Assembly: GCA_036676395.1 (NCBI GenBank)
Contig: JAKFCY010000002.1
Location: forward strand, 352,001 to 416,000
Reading direction: 5' to 3'
DNA length: 64,000 nucleotides
Source: Bdellovibrio sp.
Lineage (GTDB): Bacteria > Bdellovibrionota > Bdellovibrionia > Bdellovibrionales > Bdellovibrionaceae
The notes beneath the pieces were generated by a model. The model worked only from the letters and a program-made list of their open reading frames with translations, had not been told where the DNA came from and did no database searches. Within the stretch, counting starts at the first letter, position 1. Each line of letters starts with the position of its first letter. The translations under genes and the position numbers were made by a program. Positions 6,137-29,568 of the stretch are shown here, in pieces.

Positions 6137-7522
6137 ATGGATATTCTGAACTTTATCGATGGCGACTTCGCCAAACCTGTACAGCCCGCAACGTTCACGC
6201 AAGAGCGTCCATTTAACGATAAAACTATCTTAGTCGCCAATAGTTCAGCTCTCGATTTGGTAAAAGCCATCCAAGGCTCGCACACCGCATTTAATACCTG
6301 GAAAGAATCGACGATTGAAGACCGCGTTGTCTTAGTCGATAAAATCTTACACTACCTTCAAGACCATAAAAATCAATTTGCAGAACAGGAAGCCTGGAAT
6401 CAGGGTTTAAACTTAGCGTTTTCATTATCGGTAAATATTGATGTGGCCATAGCTAAGCTAAAAAACTTAAAAATCGAATTACACAAGGGTATTCCCGAAG
6501 GCTACGGCGTATTACCTGTGGGCGTGGTCGGCGTAGTTTTATCATGGAACTTATCAACAAGACTATTTGTTGAAAAAGTGCTTCCTGCGATTTTAGCCGG
6601 AAACTCTGTGATTGTTAAAATTTCAAGTTATTCACCAGTCACAGCCAAACTTTGGGGAGAGTTATTTCAATCAGTTGGAATGACTGCAGGTCTGGTTCAG
6701 ATGCTGCATAGCCAAGATGCTGGGTTTAAAAAATTATTCATCACGCATCCAGGAATTAAAGCCTTGTTAGTCACTGGCACTTTAGAAAATACCAGCGAAA
6801 TCATAAAAACTGTAGCGCAAATGACGACACAACAGTTTAAGAAAATTCAAATTCACTCGGGATCTAAAAATACTGCAGCAGCACTAAATGAACCTGTTGA
6901 GAAAGAAATGAATGAAATTTTAAATTCTTTTCTTTTTGGCCAAGGACAACTGGCGTGGAATTCATCAAGATTATTTATTTTAGAAAAACACGAACAGCAG
7001 TGGACTGAATTTGTAGCTCATAAGCTACATGATTTAAAGCCGAGCACTGATATTCATGATTGGTCACCGTGGACACCGCTCATGAAAATGAAATCGGTGG
7101 ATCAGTTCGCTTCGTTAGTTCAACAAGCTAAGACAGATCAGGCAAAAATTATATCGGCAGATGGGGCATTGCCCTCAAATAAATATGTAAAACCATTTTT
7201 TACTAAAGACATGTCGAACTGTTCGGTGCTGCAACAAGATCAGGTATTGGGGCCAGCATTTATTTTATCAACGGTGAAATACGCCTTCGATATTCCGAAA
7301 TATAGTAATGTTTCTTATTATGGGCATTCTGCCACAGTGTGGACAGAGGCCGGCAAAAACCAAAAGACCATCCAGCAATTGGATGTTGGTCTAGTTAGTC
7401 TTAATCGCTGGAGTATTTATCAAGATTCAGCCATTGAAGGTGTCAAACAATCATCGTTTGGAAATATGAATAGCCAGATATTTGGCGACTTTTATTGTAA
7501 CGTCAAAAAGCTGACGACTTAA
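6137..7522 (+). CDS. Aldehyde dehydrogenase-fold protein, catalytic residues apparently lost
   Basis: NFIDG, PVGVVGVVLSWN, AGNSVIVK and GP motifs present. Start moved to ATG 6137 because 6071-6136 contains the terminator. Confidence 0.8.
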   Translation: MDILNFIDGDFAKPVQPATFTQERPFNDKTILVANSSALDLVKAIQGSHTAFNTWKESTIEDRVVLVDKILHYLQDHKNQFAEQEAWNQGLNLAFSLSVNIDVAIAKLKNLKIELHKGIPEGYGVLPVGVVGVVLSWNLSTRLFVEKVLPAILAGNSVIVKISSYSPVTAKLWGELFQSVGMTAGLVQMLHSQDAGFKKLFITHPGIKALLVTGTLENTSEIIKTVAQMTTQQFKKIQIHSGSKNTAAALNEPVEKEMNEILNSFLFGQGQLAWNSSRLFILEKHEQQWTEFVAHKLHDLKPSTDIHDWSPWTPLMKMKSVDQFASLVQQAKTDQAKIISADGALPSNKYVKPFFTKDMSNCSVLQQDQVLGPAFILSTVKYAFDIPKYSNVSYYGHSATVWTEAGKNQKTIQQLDVGLVSLNRWSIYQDSAIEGVKQSSFGNMNSQIFGDFYCNVKKLTT

Positions 7523-20312: not shown

Positions 20313-21140
20313 ATGTCGCTTCGGATAAACACGAACGTGGCCTCGTTCGGCGTGCAAAACGCCATGGCCAAGTCTCAAAGACAAATCGAAAGCTCAATGA
20401 AGAGCTTATCTACAGGATCGCGCTTTGCCGAGATCAGCACTGATCCCGCATCAAAAGCCATATCCGAAGACTTGAAAAGTGATATTTCAGGAATGGATGT
20501 TGCTCGAAGAAATGCCGAGCAAGCCGGAAGTTTCGCCGCTATCGCTGAAGGTGGTATGAGCGAACAGTCTAATTTAATTATTCGAATGCGCGAGCTTGCT
20601 GTGCAAGCTGCTTCAGATACTTACTCAGATAATGAACGCGCGTTTATGCAAAATGAATTTTCAAAACTTCAGGAAGAGGTTGAACGTATTGCACAAACCA
20701 GTGCCTTTGGTTCGCGAAAACTCCTCGATGGAACCTCTACAGATATCGACATTCAAGTCGGAACGAAAGGGGATGTGAATTCGCGTATCACGTTTAATGC
20801 CGACACCGACACGACTCTGTCGGGATTAGGAGTGAGTGGAATTACGGTCGATGATAAATCTGCAGCCAGAGATGCGCTTGAATCGCTGGATGGCGGCTTA
20901 GATAAAATCTCGATGCAAAGATCTAAGTACGGTGCCCTGCAATCACGATTGGAATCCGTGCAGAGTTTCTTAGCTTCTTCGATTGAAAATGTGTCGCAAG
21001 CTAACTCTAAGTTAGCAGATACAGACTTAGCGAAAGAAGTTTCAAACTTACGTAAAAATCAGATCTTGCAGCAGTATCAAAGCGCATTGCTGCAGACTGC
21101 AAATGATCAAATGAACAATGCTTTGCGCCTAATCGCGTAA
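20313..21140 (+). CDS. fliC: Flagellin (divergent paralog, 275 aa)
   Basis: MSLRINTN, RMRELAVQAASDT, RSKYGALQSRL, DTDLAKE. Confidence 0.93.
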   Translation: MSLRINTNVASFGVQNAMAKSQRQIESSMKSLSTGSRFAEISTDPASKAISEDLKSDISGMDVARRNAEQAGSFAAIAEGGMSEQSNLIIRMRELAVQAASDTYSDNERAFMQNEFSKLQEEVERIAQTSAFGSRKLLDGTSTDIDIQVGTKGDVNSRITFNADTDTTLSGLGVSGITVDDKSAARDALESLDGGLDKISMQRSKYGALQSRLESVQSFLASSIENVSQANSKLADTDLAKEVSNLRKNQILQQYQSALLQTANDQMNNALRLIA

Positions 21141-21180
21141 GATTGTGATCGCCTTTAGCAGAGTGTTTTTAATCAAATCG

Positions 21181-21213
21181 GGCTTTGGTCTAGGCGAAAC
21201 TAGACCAAAAGCC
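21181..21213 (+). terminator. 3' hairpin after flagellin 1
   Basis: GGCTTTGGTCTAG / CTAGACCAAAAGCC; weak U-tract. Confidence 0.5.
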
Positions 21214-21300
21214 AGTCCTTCTCAAAAAAAAGTTTAATTAAATTCAGTAGTTATCTCGCTGACTTGATGTGTCGCGTCAAATAAAAGCTAGACCAAGGGC

Positions 21301-21328
21301 TAAAGTCTACTAGACCATGGTCCGAAAT
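21301..21328 (+). promoter_or_regulatory. Putative sigma28 promoter of flagellin 2
   Basis: TAAA-N16-TCCGAAAT (spacer one base longer than consensus). Confidence 0.5.
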
Positions 21329-21568
21329 AGTTGTTGTACGGAATGGTGATCTAGAAGCGAAGCGAGAAAGTCCAGTTCGATAGTCAAAACTAACGGGCCT
21401 TTCAAAAAATCCTCTAGAGAACTTAAGAAGGAAAACCCTGGCAGTCACCATGGGCCCCTTCTTAAGTTCACAACCTAACAAATACATTTGAATAAGTTTT
21501 TTTATTTTTGGTGGGTTTAACCAAAATATTTAACAACAAACTATTTAGGGAAATAGGGGGATATCAGT

Positions 21569-22396
21569 ATGGGTTTAAGAATATCAACAAACATGGCGTC
21601 GATCTCAGCACAAAGAGCAATGGGAATGCAAACTAAGCGATTAGAAAAAGCATCTCAATCTTTAGCTTCAGGTAATCGTATTACTAAGTCCGCAGATGAT
21701 TCAGCAGGTTTAGCTATCGCAGAGAACATGAGAATGGAAATTCGCGGTACCGTGCAAGCGCGTTCGAATGCATTTAATGCCATCTCGACAATTCAAGTTG
21801 CAGAGGGTGGTTTATCGGAGCAAGCAAACTTAATCGCTCGTCTACGTGAGTTAGGTGTACAAGCTGCATCTGATACAGTGGGTGAAAAAGAGCGTTTCTA
21901 CTTACAACAAGAAGCCGTTTCGATCACAGATGAGATCGAGCGTATTTCTAAAACAACAAAATTCGGTGATAAATTTTTACTAGATGGATCAAATCCTTCA
22001 TACGATTTCCATGTAGGTTCTGATGCTGCAAAAGAAAATGTGATCACATTCACATCTGAAGCAGACGGAACAATCGATGGTTTAGGTTTAACAGGAGTGG
22101 ATATCTCTGAAAAAGATGGTGCCCGTGACATGTTAAGTACACTGGATGGCGCTCTGGAAAAAGTTTCTAGAATGCGTTCAGGATTCGGTGCTGTACAGTC
22201 TCGTTTAGAATCTACTGTTAACGGTTTAGATGTTAAACAAGAAAACTTACAGTCAGCTCGTTCACGCTTAATGGATGCGGACGTTGCCAAAGAATCTGCG
22301 GATTTAGCGTCGGCTTCAATGTTACAACAAGCTTCTATCAGCGTGTTGTCACAAGCCAACCAACAACCGTACCAAGCCATGAAATTGTTAGGTTAA
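21569..22396 (+). CDS. fliC: Flagellin (275 aa)
   Basis: MGLRISTN, SGNRITKSADDSAGLAI, GAVQSRL, DADVAKE, QANQQP. Confidence 0.95.
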   Translation: MGLRISTNMASISAQRAMGMQTKRLEKASQSLASGNRITKSADDSAGLAIAENMRMEIRGTVQARSNAFNAISTIQVAEGGLSEQANLIARLRELGVQAASDTVGEKERFYLQQEAVSITDEIERISKTTKFGDKFLLDGSNPSYDFHVGSDAAKENVITFTSEADGTIDGLGLTGVDISEKDGARDMLSTLDGALEKVSRMRSGFGAVQSRLESTVNGLDVKQENLQSARSRLMDADVAKESADLASASMLQQASISVLSQANQQPYQAMKLLG

Positions 22397-22570
22397 TTTT
22401 AAGTTGAGAAGTGGGGCGCATGAAAGTGCGCCGCCATGAACTTAGACCATTACAGGTTTTAAGTTTTAAGGCCAGCCCGAGGGCACCGCCCCCGAGCTAG
22501 TCTTATAAGTTAAAAGTTTAAATTTAATAGAGTTTTGAGGCTATCGCCCTATTGATAGTTTCTTAAACCC

Positions 22571-22605
22571 GGGCTCTGGCGGTTGTTCGTCAGAGCTTTT
22601 TTTTT
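22571..22605 (+). terminator. Intrinsic terminator downstream of flagellin 2
   Basis: GCTCTGGCG / CGTCAGAGC stem followed by T9. Confidence 0.7.
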
Positions 22606-22612
22606 GCCTTTT

Positions 22613-23191
22613 TTAGAAATCTAGTTCATCTGGTGCGATCAAATATTCTCCTGGTTTCACTTCAACGACCTTCTCTTTTTTAGGTTTTTCAGCAGGTTTT
22701 GCTTCACCTTTAATATCAGCCATAGCTTCATCTTGATGTTGAACTTCTGCTTTTTTAGGCGGGGCTTTTTTAGCTTTAATTTCTACGTTTACTTCTGCTT
22801 GCGGAGTTTCGACAACTTCTGCTTCTTCTAATGGAGGCTCTTCCGCATATGCATTTTGTATTAATGGATTTTCGTTGCGGGCCGTAGGGCAAGGTTTCAC
22901 TACGCGGGCTAAAGTGTAACCGGTCATATTTTGTAAAAGGTCATAAGCACACATGCCTGGTTTCATACGGTCAGAAACTAAAACTAAAGAAGCGGTATAT
23001 CTGCGGTCGCAGGCATCAACGATTAAATCATAGCCTTGAAGAGCGGCGATATTTTTTTGGCGAAAAACACATTGATTGTTCTGTAAAATATCCGATGGGT
23101 TTTTAAGGGTGCGGCCCGGTTCAGCCTGAATTTGTGCCTGCGCCATAAAAGAAAATACCAGGGCAAAAGAGAAGAATAAAATGTTTTTCAT
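22613..23191 (-). CDS. Secreted hypothetical protein with 4 Cys and a low-complexity E/K/P-rich tail
   Basis: MKN signal peptide ending AQA; GGAG SD. Confidence 0.75.
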   Translation of the reverse strand: MKNILFFSFALVFSFMAQAQIQAEPGRTLKNPSDILQNNQCVFRQKNIAALQGYDLIVDACDRRYTASLVLVSDRMKPGMCAYDLLQNMTGYTLARVVKPCPTARNENPLIQNAYAEEPPLEEAEVVETPQAEVNVEIKAKKAPPKKAEVQHQDEAMADIKGEAKPAEKPKKEKVVEVKPGEYLIAPDELDF

Positions 23192-23420
23192 AACACGCTC
23201 CATTGGTCAAAAGCCAAAAAGTGTAACCCTGTCGAATACACAGACACCGCCATAGCATTTTCTACCGCTATTACGTATCTGAGGGCACCGCCCGCCGACA
23301 TATCTTCTACTTGCGAAGATCCTGCCAAATACACCCTTCGGCGCCATTTCCGAGCTTCGTCATTTAAATCATTCAGGGCACCGCCCCGCAGATCACGCTT
23401 AATTGCACTCGAACGAAGCT

Positions 23421-24017
23421 ATGAATCAACTTACCTTCTTTAAAAGCAAAAATTCAAAAGCTCATGGCGGGGATCCTTCAATAGGAAGAAGACGTTCGAA
23501 GAGAGTGCTAATATTGAAGCGTCCGATGCATGTGACTTTACGTTCTGAATTCGCGTATTCGGGGCGGTGCCTGCTGCGACATCAGAAAATGATTAATAAA
23601 GTTATAAGTAGAGCGGCAAATCGGTTTCGTATTTCTGTTTATGAAAAAGCGATTTGTGGAAATCATCTTCATTTATTAGTGCGAGGTAGAACGCGCTTTG
23701 AAATTCAGAACTTTTTTCGTGTTGTCGCCGGTCATATTGCGCAGAACATTCTAGAGAGTTTTCCAATTCGGGAAAATGAAAAACCTAAGTGGGGCGGTGC
23801 CTCGCGGTTGAGAAAAAATACGTGTCAGCATCCCAAGAACCAGCGAAAGTTTTGGGATGCGCTGATTTATTCGCGAGTGCTTTCGGGATGGGGCCGTGAG
23901 TTCCGTACAGTGAAAAACTATATCGTGCAAAATACGCTGGAAGCTATGGGTGTTATTCCTTATCAGAAGCGTAAAAGTCGCTACGTAACCTATGGCGGGG
24001 CGGTGCCCTCGGGGTGA
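23421..24017 (+). mobile_element. HUH Y1 transposase (IS200/IS605 TnpA or REP-associated tyrosine transposase-like), no TnpB partner
   Basis: HVTLRS strand, GNHLHLLV (HUH motif), FW, YIVQN (catalytic Tyr helix). Confidence 0.85.
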
Positions 24018-24236
24018 GTAAGTTTCTCCTCTGAAATTAAATAAAATTTATTTAAATATTTTACTCGACGAATAGGCCTCAGACTAAAAGCTACAGACTA
24101 GATAGCTATTTAGTCTATGAAGACCCAAGTCTGTCATTTATTAGTCCTGCACAGACTAGCTGAGACCATCAGCGGACCAGGAAAATCCTAGACCAAGGTT
24201 GGGAAAATCGCTGGCAAGAGGTCTATTTTTCAAAAC

Positions 24237-24311
24237 CAAAGTCCAGAACACCTCCGCCGAAGGTCTAGATTTACACGACGAGACTAAAGAGCATCACAGA
24301 CTCGCCGAAAG
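24237..24311 (+). promoter_or_regulatory. Tandem sigma28 promoters of flagellin 3
   Basis: CAAA-N15-GCCGAAGG (24237-24263) and TAAA-N15-GCCGAAAG (24285-24311). Confidence 0.7.
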
Positions 24312-24480
24312 GTATATTAAGCAAACGACTCAGACTCGACTGGATGGGCTGGAGATACTTGGTGTTGTGACTGACAACAGGTGTTGACGAAGGACCGTAA
24401 CGGCAGGGTGTAGGTCACCAAAACGTACAAAACCGGACTATATATTGTAGTCCGGTTTAAAAAACAAAAAGAGGTCTAAC

Positions 24481-25314
24481 ATGGGATTAAGAATTTCAAC
24501 AAACGTAGCAGCGATCAATGCACAAAGAACAATGAGTACAAATACTCGTGAGATGCAAAAATCGATGGCTCAATTATCAACTGGTTCACGTATCACTAAA
24601 GCGGGCGATGATGCTGCAGGTTTAGCGATTTCTGAGAACTTAAAATCTACGATTCGTTCATACGGTCAAGCATCAAGAAATGCTAATGACGGTATCTCAA
24701 TGATTCAAACTGCTGAGCAATCAATGGGTGAAATTTCTAACGTGTTAACTCGCGTACGTGAGTTAGGTATCCAAGCTTCTTCTGATACTATCGGTGATCA
24801 AGAACGTAACTTCATCCAATCTGAGGTTAATGCTCTTAAATCTGAAGTACAACGTGTTGCTGAATCTACAACTTTCGGTTCTCGTAAATTATTAGATGGT
24901 TCTGGCGGCGTATATGACATTCACGTAGGTACTTCTGCAAATGCAGCTACTGACTGGATTGGTTATGATGCAACTTCTACTAACGTGTCTATCAGCAACT
25001 TAGGTATCGAAAATCTAGATTTTACTTCTAAAGAGGGTGCTCGTGAAGGCTTAGGCGCTTTAGATCAAGCTCAATTATCTGTGAACGGTTCTCGCGCTAA
25101 TTTAGGTGCTTTACAAAATCGTTTAACTTCAACTGTGGATGTAATCGGAACTATGTCTGAGTCGATGAGTGCAGCAAATTCACGTCTACGTGATGCTGAC
25201 ATCGCTTCAACAACTTCTGAGTTAGCTCGTAACTCTGTATTATTGCAAGGTACGACTTCTGTGTTAGCTCAAGCTAACCAATCGCCGCAAATGGCTTTAA
25301 AATTGATCGGTTAA
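24481..25314 (+). CDS. fliC: Flagellin (277 aa; probably the major subunit)
   Basis: Canonical N- and C-terminal flagellin motifs; codon choice typical of highly expressed genes (TCT/ACT/CGT/GGT). Confidence 0.97.
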   Translation: MGLRISTNVAAINAQRTMSTNTREMQKSMAQLSTGSRITKAGDDAAGLAISENLKSTIRSYGQASRNANDGISMIQTAEQSMGEISNVLTRVRELGIQASSDTIGDQERNFIQSEVNALKSEVQRVAESTTFGSRKLLDGSGGVYDIHVGTSANAATDWIGYDATSTNVSISNLGIENLDFTSKEGAREGLGALDQAQLSVNGSRANLGALQNRLTSTVDVIGTMSESMSAANSRLRDADIASTTSELARNSVLLQGTTSVLAQANQSPQMALKLIG

Positions 25315-25385
25315 TTAGTTCATATTTGATTAAATTGTTTGGGCGGGGTGCGACCTCGCCCTGCTCAAAAATTTAAATATTGCTT

Positions 25386-25421
25386 AAGCGGGCTTGGGAA
25401 TCACCAAGTTCGCTTTTTTTG
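25386..25421 (+). terminator. Intrinsic terminator after flagellin 3
   Basis: AAGCGGGCTTGG / CCAAGTTCGCTT followed by a T-run; a second hairpin precedes it at 25341-25361. Confidence 0.8.
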
Positions 25422-25523
25422 TTTCAAATCCCTTTCATTTACCAGTTTACAGAGGCAATACCTTGTTGCCGCAAGGCAAAAGTGGCTATGGTGGCCATTC
25501 TCTTGGAACTGAAAGGAATCATC

Positions 25524-26594
25524 ATGTTCAAAAAAAGTTTATTATTATTTGCCGTCTTAGCTACTGGCCTATCGGCTTTAGCCGCAGAAACAGCTGCCCC
25601 AAAAGCAGCAGAAACAAAGCCTACAGAAAAAGAGCTAGTTATTTACTCAGCTCGTAAAGAAGAATTGATTAAACCACTTTTAGATCAATTTACTCAAAAA
25701 ACAGGTATTCCTGTAAAAATGTTATCTGATGATGCGCCAAAATTATTGGCTCGTATCGAATCAGAAGGAGCAGCATCTCCGGCTGATGTATTAATCACTG
25801 TTGATGTGGCGAACTTAAGCATCGCTAAAGACAAAGGTTTATTTGCAAAACTAAACTCGAAAACTTTAAACAAAAATGTTCCGGCTTTATACCGTGACAA
25901 AGACAGCGAGTGGTTTGGTTTAAGCAAACGTGTGCGCGCGGTTTTCTACAATAAAGAAAAAGTTAAACCAGAAGAATTATCTACTTATGAAGATTTAGCG
26001 GATGCAAAATGGAAAGGTAACATTTTAGCACGCTCTTCGGCTCACCCATACAATCAATCATTATTTGCTCATATCATTAAAGTTCACGGTGATAAATATG
26101 CATCTGACTGGGCAAAAGGTTTTGTTACTAATTTGGCTCGTCCTCCACAGGGTGGCGATTCTGATCAATTACGTGCTGTTGCCGCTGGCGAAGCTAAATT
26201 GGCAATCTCAAACAGTTACTATTACGGTAAAATGTTAACTTCAGAACTTCCTGAAGATAAATTAGTGGCGCAAAAAGTTGGAATCTTTTTCCCGAATCAA
26301 AAATCGGCAAAAGGCCAATTAAACGGCGTGCACGTGAATATCAGTGGTGGCGCTGTTCTTAAGACAAGTAAAAATGCGAAAAACGCACAAAAGCTTTTAG
26401 AATTTTTAAGCTCTGCTGAAGCGCAAGATTTATATGCAAGCTTGAATAAAGAATTTCCGGTATTAACAACTGCTAAATCTGATTCAGTCTTAGCTTCTTG
26501 GGGGCCGTTCAAAGAAGATAAAACTTTATTGCACTCTTGGGCACCTCATTCAAAACAAGCGACGTTAATTTCTGACCAAGTGGGTTGGAAGTAA
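25524..26594 (+). CDS. fbpA: Fe(III) ABC transporter substrate-binding protein (FbpA/FutA type)
   Basis: YSAR, SPADVLITVD, YNQSL, GGDSDQ, NSYYY, NISG; AAAGGA SD before 25524. Confidence 0.9.
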   Translation: MFKKSLLLFAVLATGLSALAAETAAPKAAETKPTEKELVIYSARKEELIKPLLDQFTQKTGIPVKMLSDDAPKLLARIESEGAASPADVLITVDVANLSIAKDKGLFAKLNSKTLNKNVPALYRDKDSEWFGLSKRVRAVFYNKEKVKPEELSTYEDLADAKWKGNILARSSAHPYNQSLFAHIIKVHGDKYASDWAKGFVTNLARPPQGGDSDQLRAVAAGEAKLAISNSYYYGKMLTSELPEDKLVAQKVGIFFPNQKSAKGQLNGVHVNISGGAVLKTSKNAKNAQKLLEFLSSAEAQDLYASLNKEFPVLTTAKSDSVLASWGPFKEDKTLLHSWAPHSKQATLISDQVGWK

Positions 26595-29255: not shown

Positions 29256-29283
29256 GGAAAAAAGAAATAAATGGCTTTGCCAT

Positions 29284-29568
29284 TTATTTTCTACCGCGAA
29301 TTCCTAAATTAGAAATAATTAATTTTTCATACTCTTTCATCAGAAAGTTAAACAACTGACGTTCAGGAATATCATATAATTTCATAAGCTTTTTTAAGAT
29401 GTCCCATGGAGGCGAGCATTTACCACGCTCCCAGTTAGAAACGAATTGCGACTTGCACTGGCAGGCCCGGGCAACGTCAATTTGGGTGAGATTTTGACTC
29501 TCGCGTTTGTCTTTTAGGTATTCGCCTAACTTACCAAAGTGCTGTTTTAGCGCATTTTTATTTTCCAT
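29284..29568 (-). CDS. XRE-family HTH transcriptional regulator
   Basis: LK..R....LTQ.DVA.......FVSNWERG..P. Confidence 0.88.
   Translation of the reverse strand: MENKNALKQHFGKLGEYLKDKRESQNLTQIDVARACQCKSQFVSNWERGKCSPPWDILKKLMKLYDIPERQLFNFLMKEYEKLIISNLGIRGRK

Follow-up and report, generated by a model that had tools for sequence, protein, structure and literature searches.

A Y1/HUH nuclease gene in the genome of a Bdellovibrio sp. is accompanied by six exact copies, around and inside it, of an 11–12-base word, GGCACCGCCC, and the strand that carries the word switches at the start codon. As judged from sequence comparison across relatives, the word is cognate to its Y1 gene, and several of the local copies are short patches in intact host DNA that are present in one close relative and absent from another. 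We regard the chances as evenly balanced that a Y1 nuclease acting in cis would read its cognate word by sequence and patch word-bearing pieces into nearby tolerant sites; from these observations we infer local tag writing by the Y1 enzyme.

Results

In the window, by which we mean the whole analysed stretch of 64,000 nucleotides, GGCACCGCCC lies on the plus strand at 22482, 23284 and 23377, upstream of the gene, and on the minus strand at 23562–23571, 23792–23801 and 23998–24007, inside it (Table 1). An earlier note on this DNA had listed six oriented copies, three of them within the reading frame, and exact matches were found at all six; its coordinates were off by 1–6 bases. It had seen no copy elsewhere, and the 64 kb indeed contain none at up to one mismatch; shuffled sequences held 0.87 copies on average, none of 100 shuffles reaching six. 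The flip in orientation, which had been placed near the gene start, falls at the start codon. The in-gene copies begin at offsets 141, 371 and 577 from the ATG and thus sit in three different frames, again as first described. The word had been called non-palindromic, which is true of related D-, E- and F-type words, which have no stem, but not strictly of the core found here: GGGC-ACC-GCCC is a quasi-palindrome with a 4-bp stem and a 3-nt loop (−3.2 kcal/mol), a hairpin no more stable than those of shuffles. A further pair, CCGCCATAG/CTATGGCGG, is present at 23247 and 23990 as reported, but is broken in locus L071 and absent from L151, and since it is not conserved it is probably incidental.

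Upstream of the gene, TTGC occurs at −17 to −19 from the start 37 times among 51 genes, and the D clade has TTGAA at a similar place before the ATG; the TTGCA of the window was ruled out as a sigma-54 −12 box or a sigma-70 −35 box by its spacing. Rfam gave no match in window positions 21000–25600. An isolated B-type word (GGGGCATTGCCC) is found at window 7163–7174, 16 kb from the gene.

Table 1 Features of the Y1/HUH locus and its word copies (window coordinates)
Feature	Position	Strand	Remarks
Y1/HUH nuclease gene	23421..24017	+	198 aa from ATG; frame open from TTG 23403
HUH motif (NHLH)	23661–23672	+	in Y1 gene
Candidate catalytic Tyr codon	23919–23921	+	in Y1 gene
Far upstream copy	22481..22492	−	loop of intergenic hairpin after first flagellin gene
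Hypothetical exported-protein gene	22613..23203	−	locus resident: in L166 without Y1 or word
Second upstream copy	23283..23293	−	equal-length host stretch instead in L072, L073, L166
Start-proximal copy	23376..23387	− (GGGGCGGTGCCC on − strand)	conserved partner of loop copy
TTGCA	23403..23407	+	18 bases before ATG; position conserved in A/B clades
In-gene copy 1 (SGRC)	23561..23571	+	mainly in P1's subclade
Loop copy (WGGA)	23791..23801	+	disordered alphaC-beta4 loop between HUH and Tyr; clade-wide frozen silent sites
3' copy (GGAVP)	23997..24008	+	directly before stop codon; some clades only; hypervariable stretch after
Intergenic hairpin	29269..29285	.	5.3 kb downstream; no copy here

An HUH motif and a single candidate catalytic tyrosine on a predicted Y1 fold place the protein in the TnpA-Y1 (HUH/Y1) superfamily. 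The reading frame matches Pfam Y1_Tnp with E 3.4e-7, above the cut-off, and stays below the NCBIfam cut-offs for both IS200/IS605 (score 24, cut-off 55) and RAYT (score 19, cut-off 80); its protein holds no second Pfam domain. N87-H88-x-H90 and Y173 (numbered from the TTG at 23403) are invariant in 35 sequences. The tyrosine motif reads Y-I-x-x-N-T, which is neither the class 1 nor the class 2 signature, and the invariant N177 is followed by T, V, I or N, never by P. In the AlphaFold model (pLDDT 72.7), the Y1 core is well predicted, whereas loop 130–151 and both of the long, basic N- and C-terminal tails are disordered. The best structural matches found by Foldseek are the TnpA proteins of IS608 and ISDra2 (E 1e-5 to 1e-4), and RayT 4ER8 was matched at E 7e-4 (TM 0.46 by query). 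The helix before the loop aligns, weakly (E 0.06), with ISDra2 residues ending in LWGG, which makes the loop the alphaC-beta4 segment. With dN/dS values of 0.06–0.28 in 16 pairs, the family is, on this estimate, under purifying selection. In many of its members, a variable basic tail precedes a final N/D-T/S-S/G/A-stop; a DNA signal at the stop codon was rejected, as the C-terminal serine uses both TCN and AGY codons, so that the N/D-T/S-S/G ending looks like a protein-level feature.

Matches to the family were found in 43 of 61 relatives and in 77 of the 201 genomes of the phylum Bdellovibrionota, at 1–26 diverged matches per genome; searches for relatives in plasmids and in viral contigs found none. 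From 165 loci, 140 had both catalytic landmarks, 113 of these were distinct and 88 remained at less than 90% identity with enough flank; after removal of six more without landmarks, 82 were analysed. An in-frame word stands in the loop between HUH and Tyr at 72 of the 82 loci, and at 65 of these 72 a copy of matching type stands in inverted orientation no more than 150 bases upstream of the start. An unbiased search for inverted matches scoring at least 9 between loop and upstream region succeeded at 68/82 loci, compared with 10/82 for a control region and 16/82 for direct matches. This inverted complementarity does not reach past the word; folding being close to that of shuffles as well, a hairpin or pairing was rejected as the conserved feature, and the fold-back of left and right copies in single-stranded DNA, which the earlier note had envisaged, is possible and goes unsupported. 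A 3' copy is present at only about 18/82 loci. The 10/82 loci without loop copy, together with short-loop relatives that have none, indicate that the loop copy is not essential family-wide.

The words of the family are 11–14 bases long and fall into seven clade-specific types (GGGCGGTGCCC, GGGCAATGCCC, GGGCGGTACCC, GGGCGATGG, GGGCGAGGGG, GTGACCGATACCC and GTGACCGGTACCC). Word type follows the protein tree with 12 changes as against 39.8 after shuffling, a figure that shows clustering only, as it comes from a quick tree in which kin share labels. Within the loop, the third positions of Gly-Gly-Ala have entropies of 0.37, 0.16 and 0.15 bits compared with a median of 1.86 (48 columns, 54 genes), and the host codes Gly-Gly-Ala as GGCGGTGCC in just 9 of 387 cases; frozen third positions and the rare codon choice mean that constraint acts on the DNA, and since the loop Gly-Gly aligns with LWGG of ISDra2 TnpA, a protein-level constraint may contribute. 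The loop is 25 to 76 residues long, and in 19 of 116 homologous loops at least two word-derived peptides are matched in frame when counted at the peptide level. Among another 56, mostly distant, loci, the short-loop forms show no inverted loop match above control. At about 30 of the 56 (by eye), a related word, CATTGCCCC or ACATCGCT, immediately precedes the start and is often placed between TTGACA-like −35 and −10-like boxes (also by eye), and short-loop relatives retain at most this upstream word. That distant short-loop loci keep the upstream word without a loop copy suggests that the upstream site is ancestral and that the loop copy was co-opted later.

The assembly (3.4 Mb, about 39% G+C) contains 16 exact copies of the word where Markov models predict about 2, and in this genome-wide count, which the earlier note had proposed, the word is tied to Y1 genes: ten copies are at three of the five Y1 paralogues, namely six at P1 (the gene in the window), three at P2 and one at P3, and the remaining six are scattered and show no link to Y1 genes. 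The transposase, which had been described as lone, is so within the window, but the genome contains these five paralogues, at 32–58% amino acid identity to the query. P3 otherwise uses GGGCAATGCCC, while P4 and P5 use GTGACC(C/G)ATACCC. Both of these have one inverted copy beside the start codon and one direct copy in the corresponding loop, to which P5 adds one at its 3' end. Three F-type copies lie 2–11 kb upstream of P5, all of them outward.

Beyond the immediate surroundings of the genes, taken as more than 200 bases upstream or more than 60 downstream, 284 kb of flank of 72 genes hold 21 cognate and 2 non-cognate copies. The cognate flank copies point outward in 18 cases and inward in 3, not all of them independent, as two pairs are orthologous. 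Exact cognate copies upstream of the start favour one orientation by 64 to 6, and those in or after the gene favour the opposite one by 79 to 5. A long-range strand skew around the gene was discarded in terms of total base skew, which was seen only within about 150 bases upstream. In close relatives, some sites are filled and others are not. Where the window has the copy at 22482, L072 and L073 have a T-run in the hairpin loop, and the copy at 23284 replaces an equal-length stretch of host DNA. At window 29269, L250 (95% identical there) and L249 each carry an outward copy, at different offsets; a B-type copy that L078 and L080 have is missing from L084, at 91% identity. Only here and in L254 does the neighbour gene of P3 contain an in-frame copy, close to its 5' end; the copy upstream of P3 is A-type here and B-type in L254. 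In the alignment of orthologues that the earlier note had suggested, copies appear as short patches that differ between close relatives; gain and loss are unrooted in these comparisons, so that some patches may reflect decay.

The Y1 gene is flanked by two flagellin genes and, on the 5' side, also by a single hypothetical gene; window 20313–25314 comprises at least three tandem flagellin genes, about 45% identical to one another. Here and in L071, Y1 stands between the hypothetical neighbour and the second flagellin gene, and the part of the locus covered by the L151 contig shows this order too. In L072 and L073 it stands between the terminator and the neighbour gene, hence at a second position within the flagellin locus, and L166 has no Y1 in the locus; L074 and L141 are devoid of the neighbour gene, L141 being a deletion remnant. 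In line with the earlier note, no TnpB gene was found beside Y1 genes among the 133 of 143 listed neighbours that were scanned, which are mostly ordinary housekeeping or unassigned genes and share no common cargo class. Window 24030–24480, in front of the second flagellin gene, consists of 450 bases of non-coding DNA that are strongly conserved throughout the genus, also in L179, which has no Y1; it is rich in AGAC/GTCT words, has no Rfam match and is possibly a regulatory RNA or a multi-site promoter. In a contig of run X14, the terminator is followed by 386 extra bases (window 22604–22613), where L071 has an extra word copy, and a contig of run X2 has one base fewer at window 23250.

Copies of the gene within one genome are 70–93% identical and never near-identical in the 11 genomes examined, and identical multi-copy IS elements with standard ends, which the earlier note had named as speaking against its reading, were not seen. 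In A-type sets, similarity between copies of one genome ends 80–100 bases upstream and 3–9 bases after the stop codon, near which no right-hand repeat or hairpin common to them was seen. No precise empty site was found either: where the element would stand, L248 carries about 126 bases of unrelated sequence. Both remnants examined are simple deletions with endpoints away from the word, and a recombination hot spot at the loop was rejected, given similar identities of the 5' and 3' halves. No strand-switch joints were found among the listed rows for the contigs of six runs, bearing in mind that contigs drop rare forms. Unrelated neighbours, diverged copies and the shifting position in the locus indicate that the gene moves slowly and without recognisable ends. 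The 1–26 matches per genome, in unrelated neighbourhoods, and the two positions within this locus give no support to the view of it as domesticated, in the sense of a single-copy gene at a fixed locus, although the family is under purifying selection and near-identical pairs were absent among those examined.

The same kinds of host site recur in different clades (mlaD-dciA in L051, L065 and L024; flagellin in L001, L096, L122 and L147), which suggests insertion hot spots. In the distant short-loop loci L227/L230 and L242/L243, similarity between copies breaks off at GAGATTGC...CTCGCAA palindromes, which resemble a REP-like family, presumably the CGTC-type repeats. In PMC3733652, CGTC repeats appear as elements without a dedicated transposase.

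Discussion

In-frame repeats and gene-overlapping inverted repeats have already been published for other Y1 subclasses (subclass 2.4 and TIRYT, respectively), so that the label 'atypical' in the earlier note is only partly right. As far as the following comparisons reach, the element works like a TIRYT or a REPtron but fails defining features of each subclass tested. It shares with the TIRYT/TIRtron elements of Di Nocera et al. (2013) a Y1 gene with its own short inverted repeats, distinct from GTAG REPs, low repeat abundance and the presence in one genome of several diverged genes with a separate repeat for each. PMC3733652 states that the inverted repeats of TIRYT genes may overlap the 5' or 3' gene end and gives a GGGGWSAS motif, and PMC6006769 largely equates TIRYT with TnpA-Y1 subclass 2.1. 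The P1 gene is likewise bracketed by its own inverted repeats (23376 and 23997), an arrangement seen in about 18/82 relatives only. Unlike in TIRYT, however, the conserved partner of the upstream copy lies mid-gene and not at the 3' end, the words (GGGGCGGT, GGGGCAAT, GGGGTATC and similar) do not fit GGGGWSAS, the C-terminus has no helix-turn-helix (no second Pfam domain, disordered tail in the model), the tyrosine motif is without NP, and the flank copies form a local polar halo. Subclass 2.4 (RAYT group 4; Quentin et al. 2018) also has in-frame repeats between HUH and Tyr in a peripheral region of variable length; those are long GT[AG]G-footed hairpins in the beta3-alphaC insertion, as described in PMC6006769, whereas here a footless 11–14-base word occupies a fixed position in the alphaC-beta4 loop with frozen silent sites.

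With REPtrons (E. coli TnpA-REP/RayT 4ER8 and group 3 RAYTs, PMC8266576), the family has in common the fold, a cognate, co-evolving repeat and purifying selection. REP recognition proceeds through a foot and a folded hairpin according to PMC8266576, which calls the mechanisms of RAYT repeat dissemination poorly understood. Here, in contrast, no conserved foot of the GT[AG]G kind that marks the flanking hairpin REPs of subclasses 2.2, 2.4, 2.5, 2.7 and 2.8 stands beside the word, the stem has only 4 bp, there is no genome-wide population (16 copies in 3.4 Mb, 10 of them at genes), the gene is multi-copy, and the Y---NP motif of class 2 RAYTs is absent; domestication criteria are given in bioRxiv 119735. 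Dispersed copies in unrelated neighbourhoods recall the TnpA genes of IS200/IS605 (IS608, ISDra2), but the Y---Q motif of subclass 1.1, TnpB, identical copies, conserved terminal hairpins and a precise empty site were all not found, and the basic N- and C-terminal tails are longer. TnpA-Y1 class 3 (Y----Q, CnGA-footed hairpins) was compared by its published signature only, which was not matched by eye. In the literature covered, with subscription papers outside its scope, only the REP, RAYT and TIRYT papers cited here came up, and neither this family nor a fixed promoter-plus-loop pair nor a polar local halo was described, although figures S6 and S10 of PMC6006769 and Figure 9 of PMC3733652 may show similar cases; a term search for 'Bdellovibrio' gave no hit in the main text of PMC3733652 or in the supplements of PMC6006769.

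Nicking by Y1 enzymes and strand transfer are established for IS608 TnpA and TnpA-REP. By analogy, local patch writing in the present family would proceed mainly in cis, on transiently single-stranded DNA: the protein likely binds its cognate 11–14-base word by sequence, and the enzyme, whose activity is suggested by dN/dS and by the invariant HUH and Tyr, likely makes nicks and patches short pieces carrying the word into tolerant sites close to its gene. New copies would survive only where they are tolerated, such as its own disordered loop, the C-terminal tail, intergenic hairpins or a signal peptide. The start-proximal copy would be the ancestral site and likely also an operator; the loop copy may derive by co-option from a Gly-x-Ala loop, and its retention would mean either that the pair is required, for synapsis or autorepression, or that this copy is repeatedly rewritten. 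The whole gene would move rarely, by a route without target duplication or precise ends. Such a scheme accommodates the proposal of the earlier note that the protein recognises or deposits a short tag, also in its own gene, in that it fits the link to Y1, the clade specificity, the constraint on DNA and the patches. Several observations count against it. The loop copy is missing from 10/82 loci and dispensable in distant relatives, three of the 21 flank copies point inward and two pairs among the 21 are orthologous, constraint on the protein may contribute at the loop Gly-Gly, some of the unrooted patches may be decay, and no precise empty site was found. Nothing observed here accounts for the switch in polarity at the start codon, and the word folds weakly or not at all, unlike the hairpins read by known Y1 enzymes; to our knowledge, those enzymes all read folded hairpins. 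A bolder version is a self-writing HUH nuclease that would stamp its own 11–14-base tag nearby by short-patch replacement, with strict outward polarity from the start codon and neither hairpin substrate nor target duplication, and that would keep rewriting this tag in a loop of its own coding sequence. We put this forward tentatively and consider it doubtful.

Two other readings dispense with tag writing. If the element were of the TIRtron type, the upstream and 3' copies would be terminal inverted repeats and the other copies scars of local hops or adjacent deletions. At the P1 locus, the copies at 23376 and 23997 do bracket the reading frame in inverted orientation, the Y1 gene is found to the left of the neighbour gene in L072/L073 and to its right here, with the neighbour lost in L074 and L141, and the published TIRYT repeats overlap gene ends (PMC3733652, cited above). 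We nevertheless think this unlikely, since the supposed right end is so much rarer than the loop copy (about 18/82 versus 72/82 loci), since A-type copies stop resembling each other 80–100 bases upstream and 3–9 bases after the stop codon with no right-hand repeat, and since distant copies are found as far as 5 kb off in host DNA that is intact apart from them. The words might instead be operators only, with the protein binding the duplex word and repressing its own promoter by looping to the site inside the gene, and with extra copies arising by host recombination, gene conversion or selection. The long basic protein tails, the spacing of the two sites (about 400 bases) and the upstream word, which adjoins the start codon and in short-loop relatives lies between promoter-like boxes, would suit such a repressor. 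Neither the multi-base, cognate and polar patches kilobases away between 91–95% identical genomes nor the invariant HUH and Tyr would be explained, and we judge it rather unlikely.

The conserved inverted repeat around the 5' part of the gene could also be an invertible switch in which inversion between the upstream and loop copies turns over the 5' two-thirds of the gene as an on/off device. This is very improbable: no strand-switch joint appears in the listed rows for the six contig sets, both remnants are simple deletions with ends away from the word, and the 5' and 3' halves diverge similarly. Integron-like capture, with the word marking recombination sites at which the neighbour gene is inserted, was proposed by the position of the 22613–23203 gene between same-direction copies in L071 and L151 and its lack at that position in L072, L073 and L074; the comparison of loci largely refutes it, as L166 has the gene without Y1 or word, L072/L073 have it on the other side of Y1, and the 133 neighbours share no cargo class, and we rejected it as hardly credible. 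That chance or codon usage produced the word, Gly-Gly-Ala and similar peptides happening to yield it, has practically no probability left. In its favour, six genomic copies show no link to Y1 genes and Gly-Gly is found in the IS200 loop too, but occurrence in three reading frames and in non-coding DNA would stay unexplained, and frozen silent sites and co-variation over the seven word types refute it.

Taken as local patch writing, the family represents a minimal, local version of repeat spread, with filled and unfilled sites in close relatives. Its seven natural enzyme-word pairs are usable for specificity swaps, and the loop copy offers a built-in silent-mutation test. If patch writing is true, the enzyme would possibly be a compact tool for short single-stranded DNA insertion. 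If the self-writing version is true, tag, promoter site and part of the protein would change together. For the host, patch writing would mean a local mutator, directed by sequence, that alters intergenic regions and in places even coding DNA.
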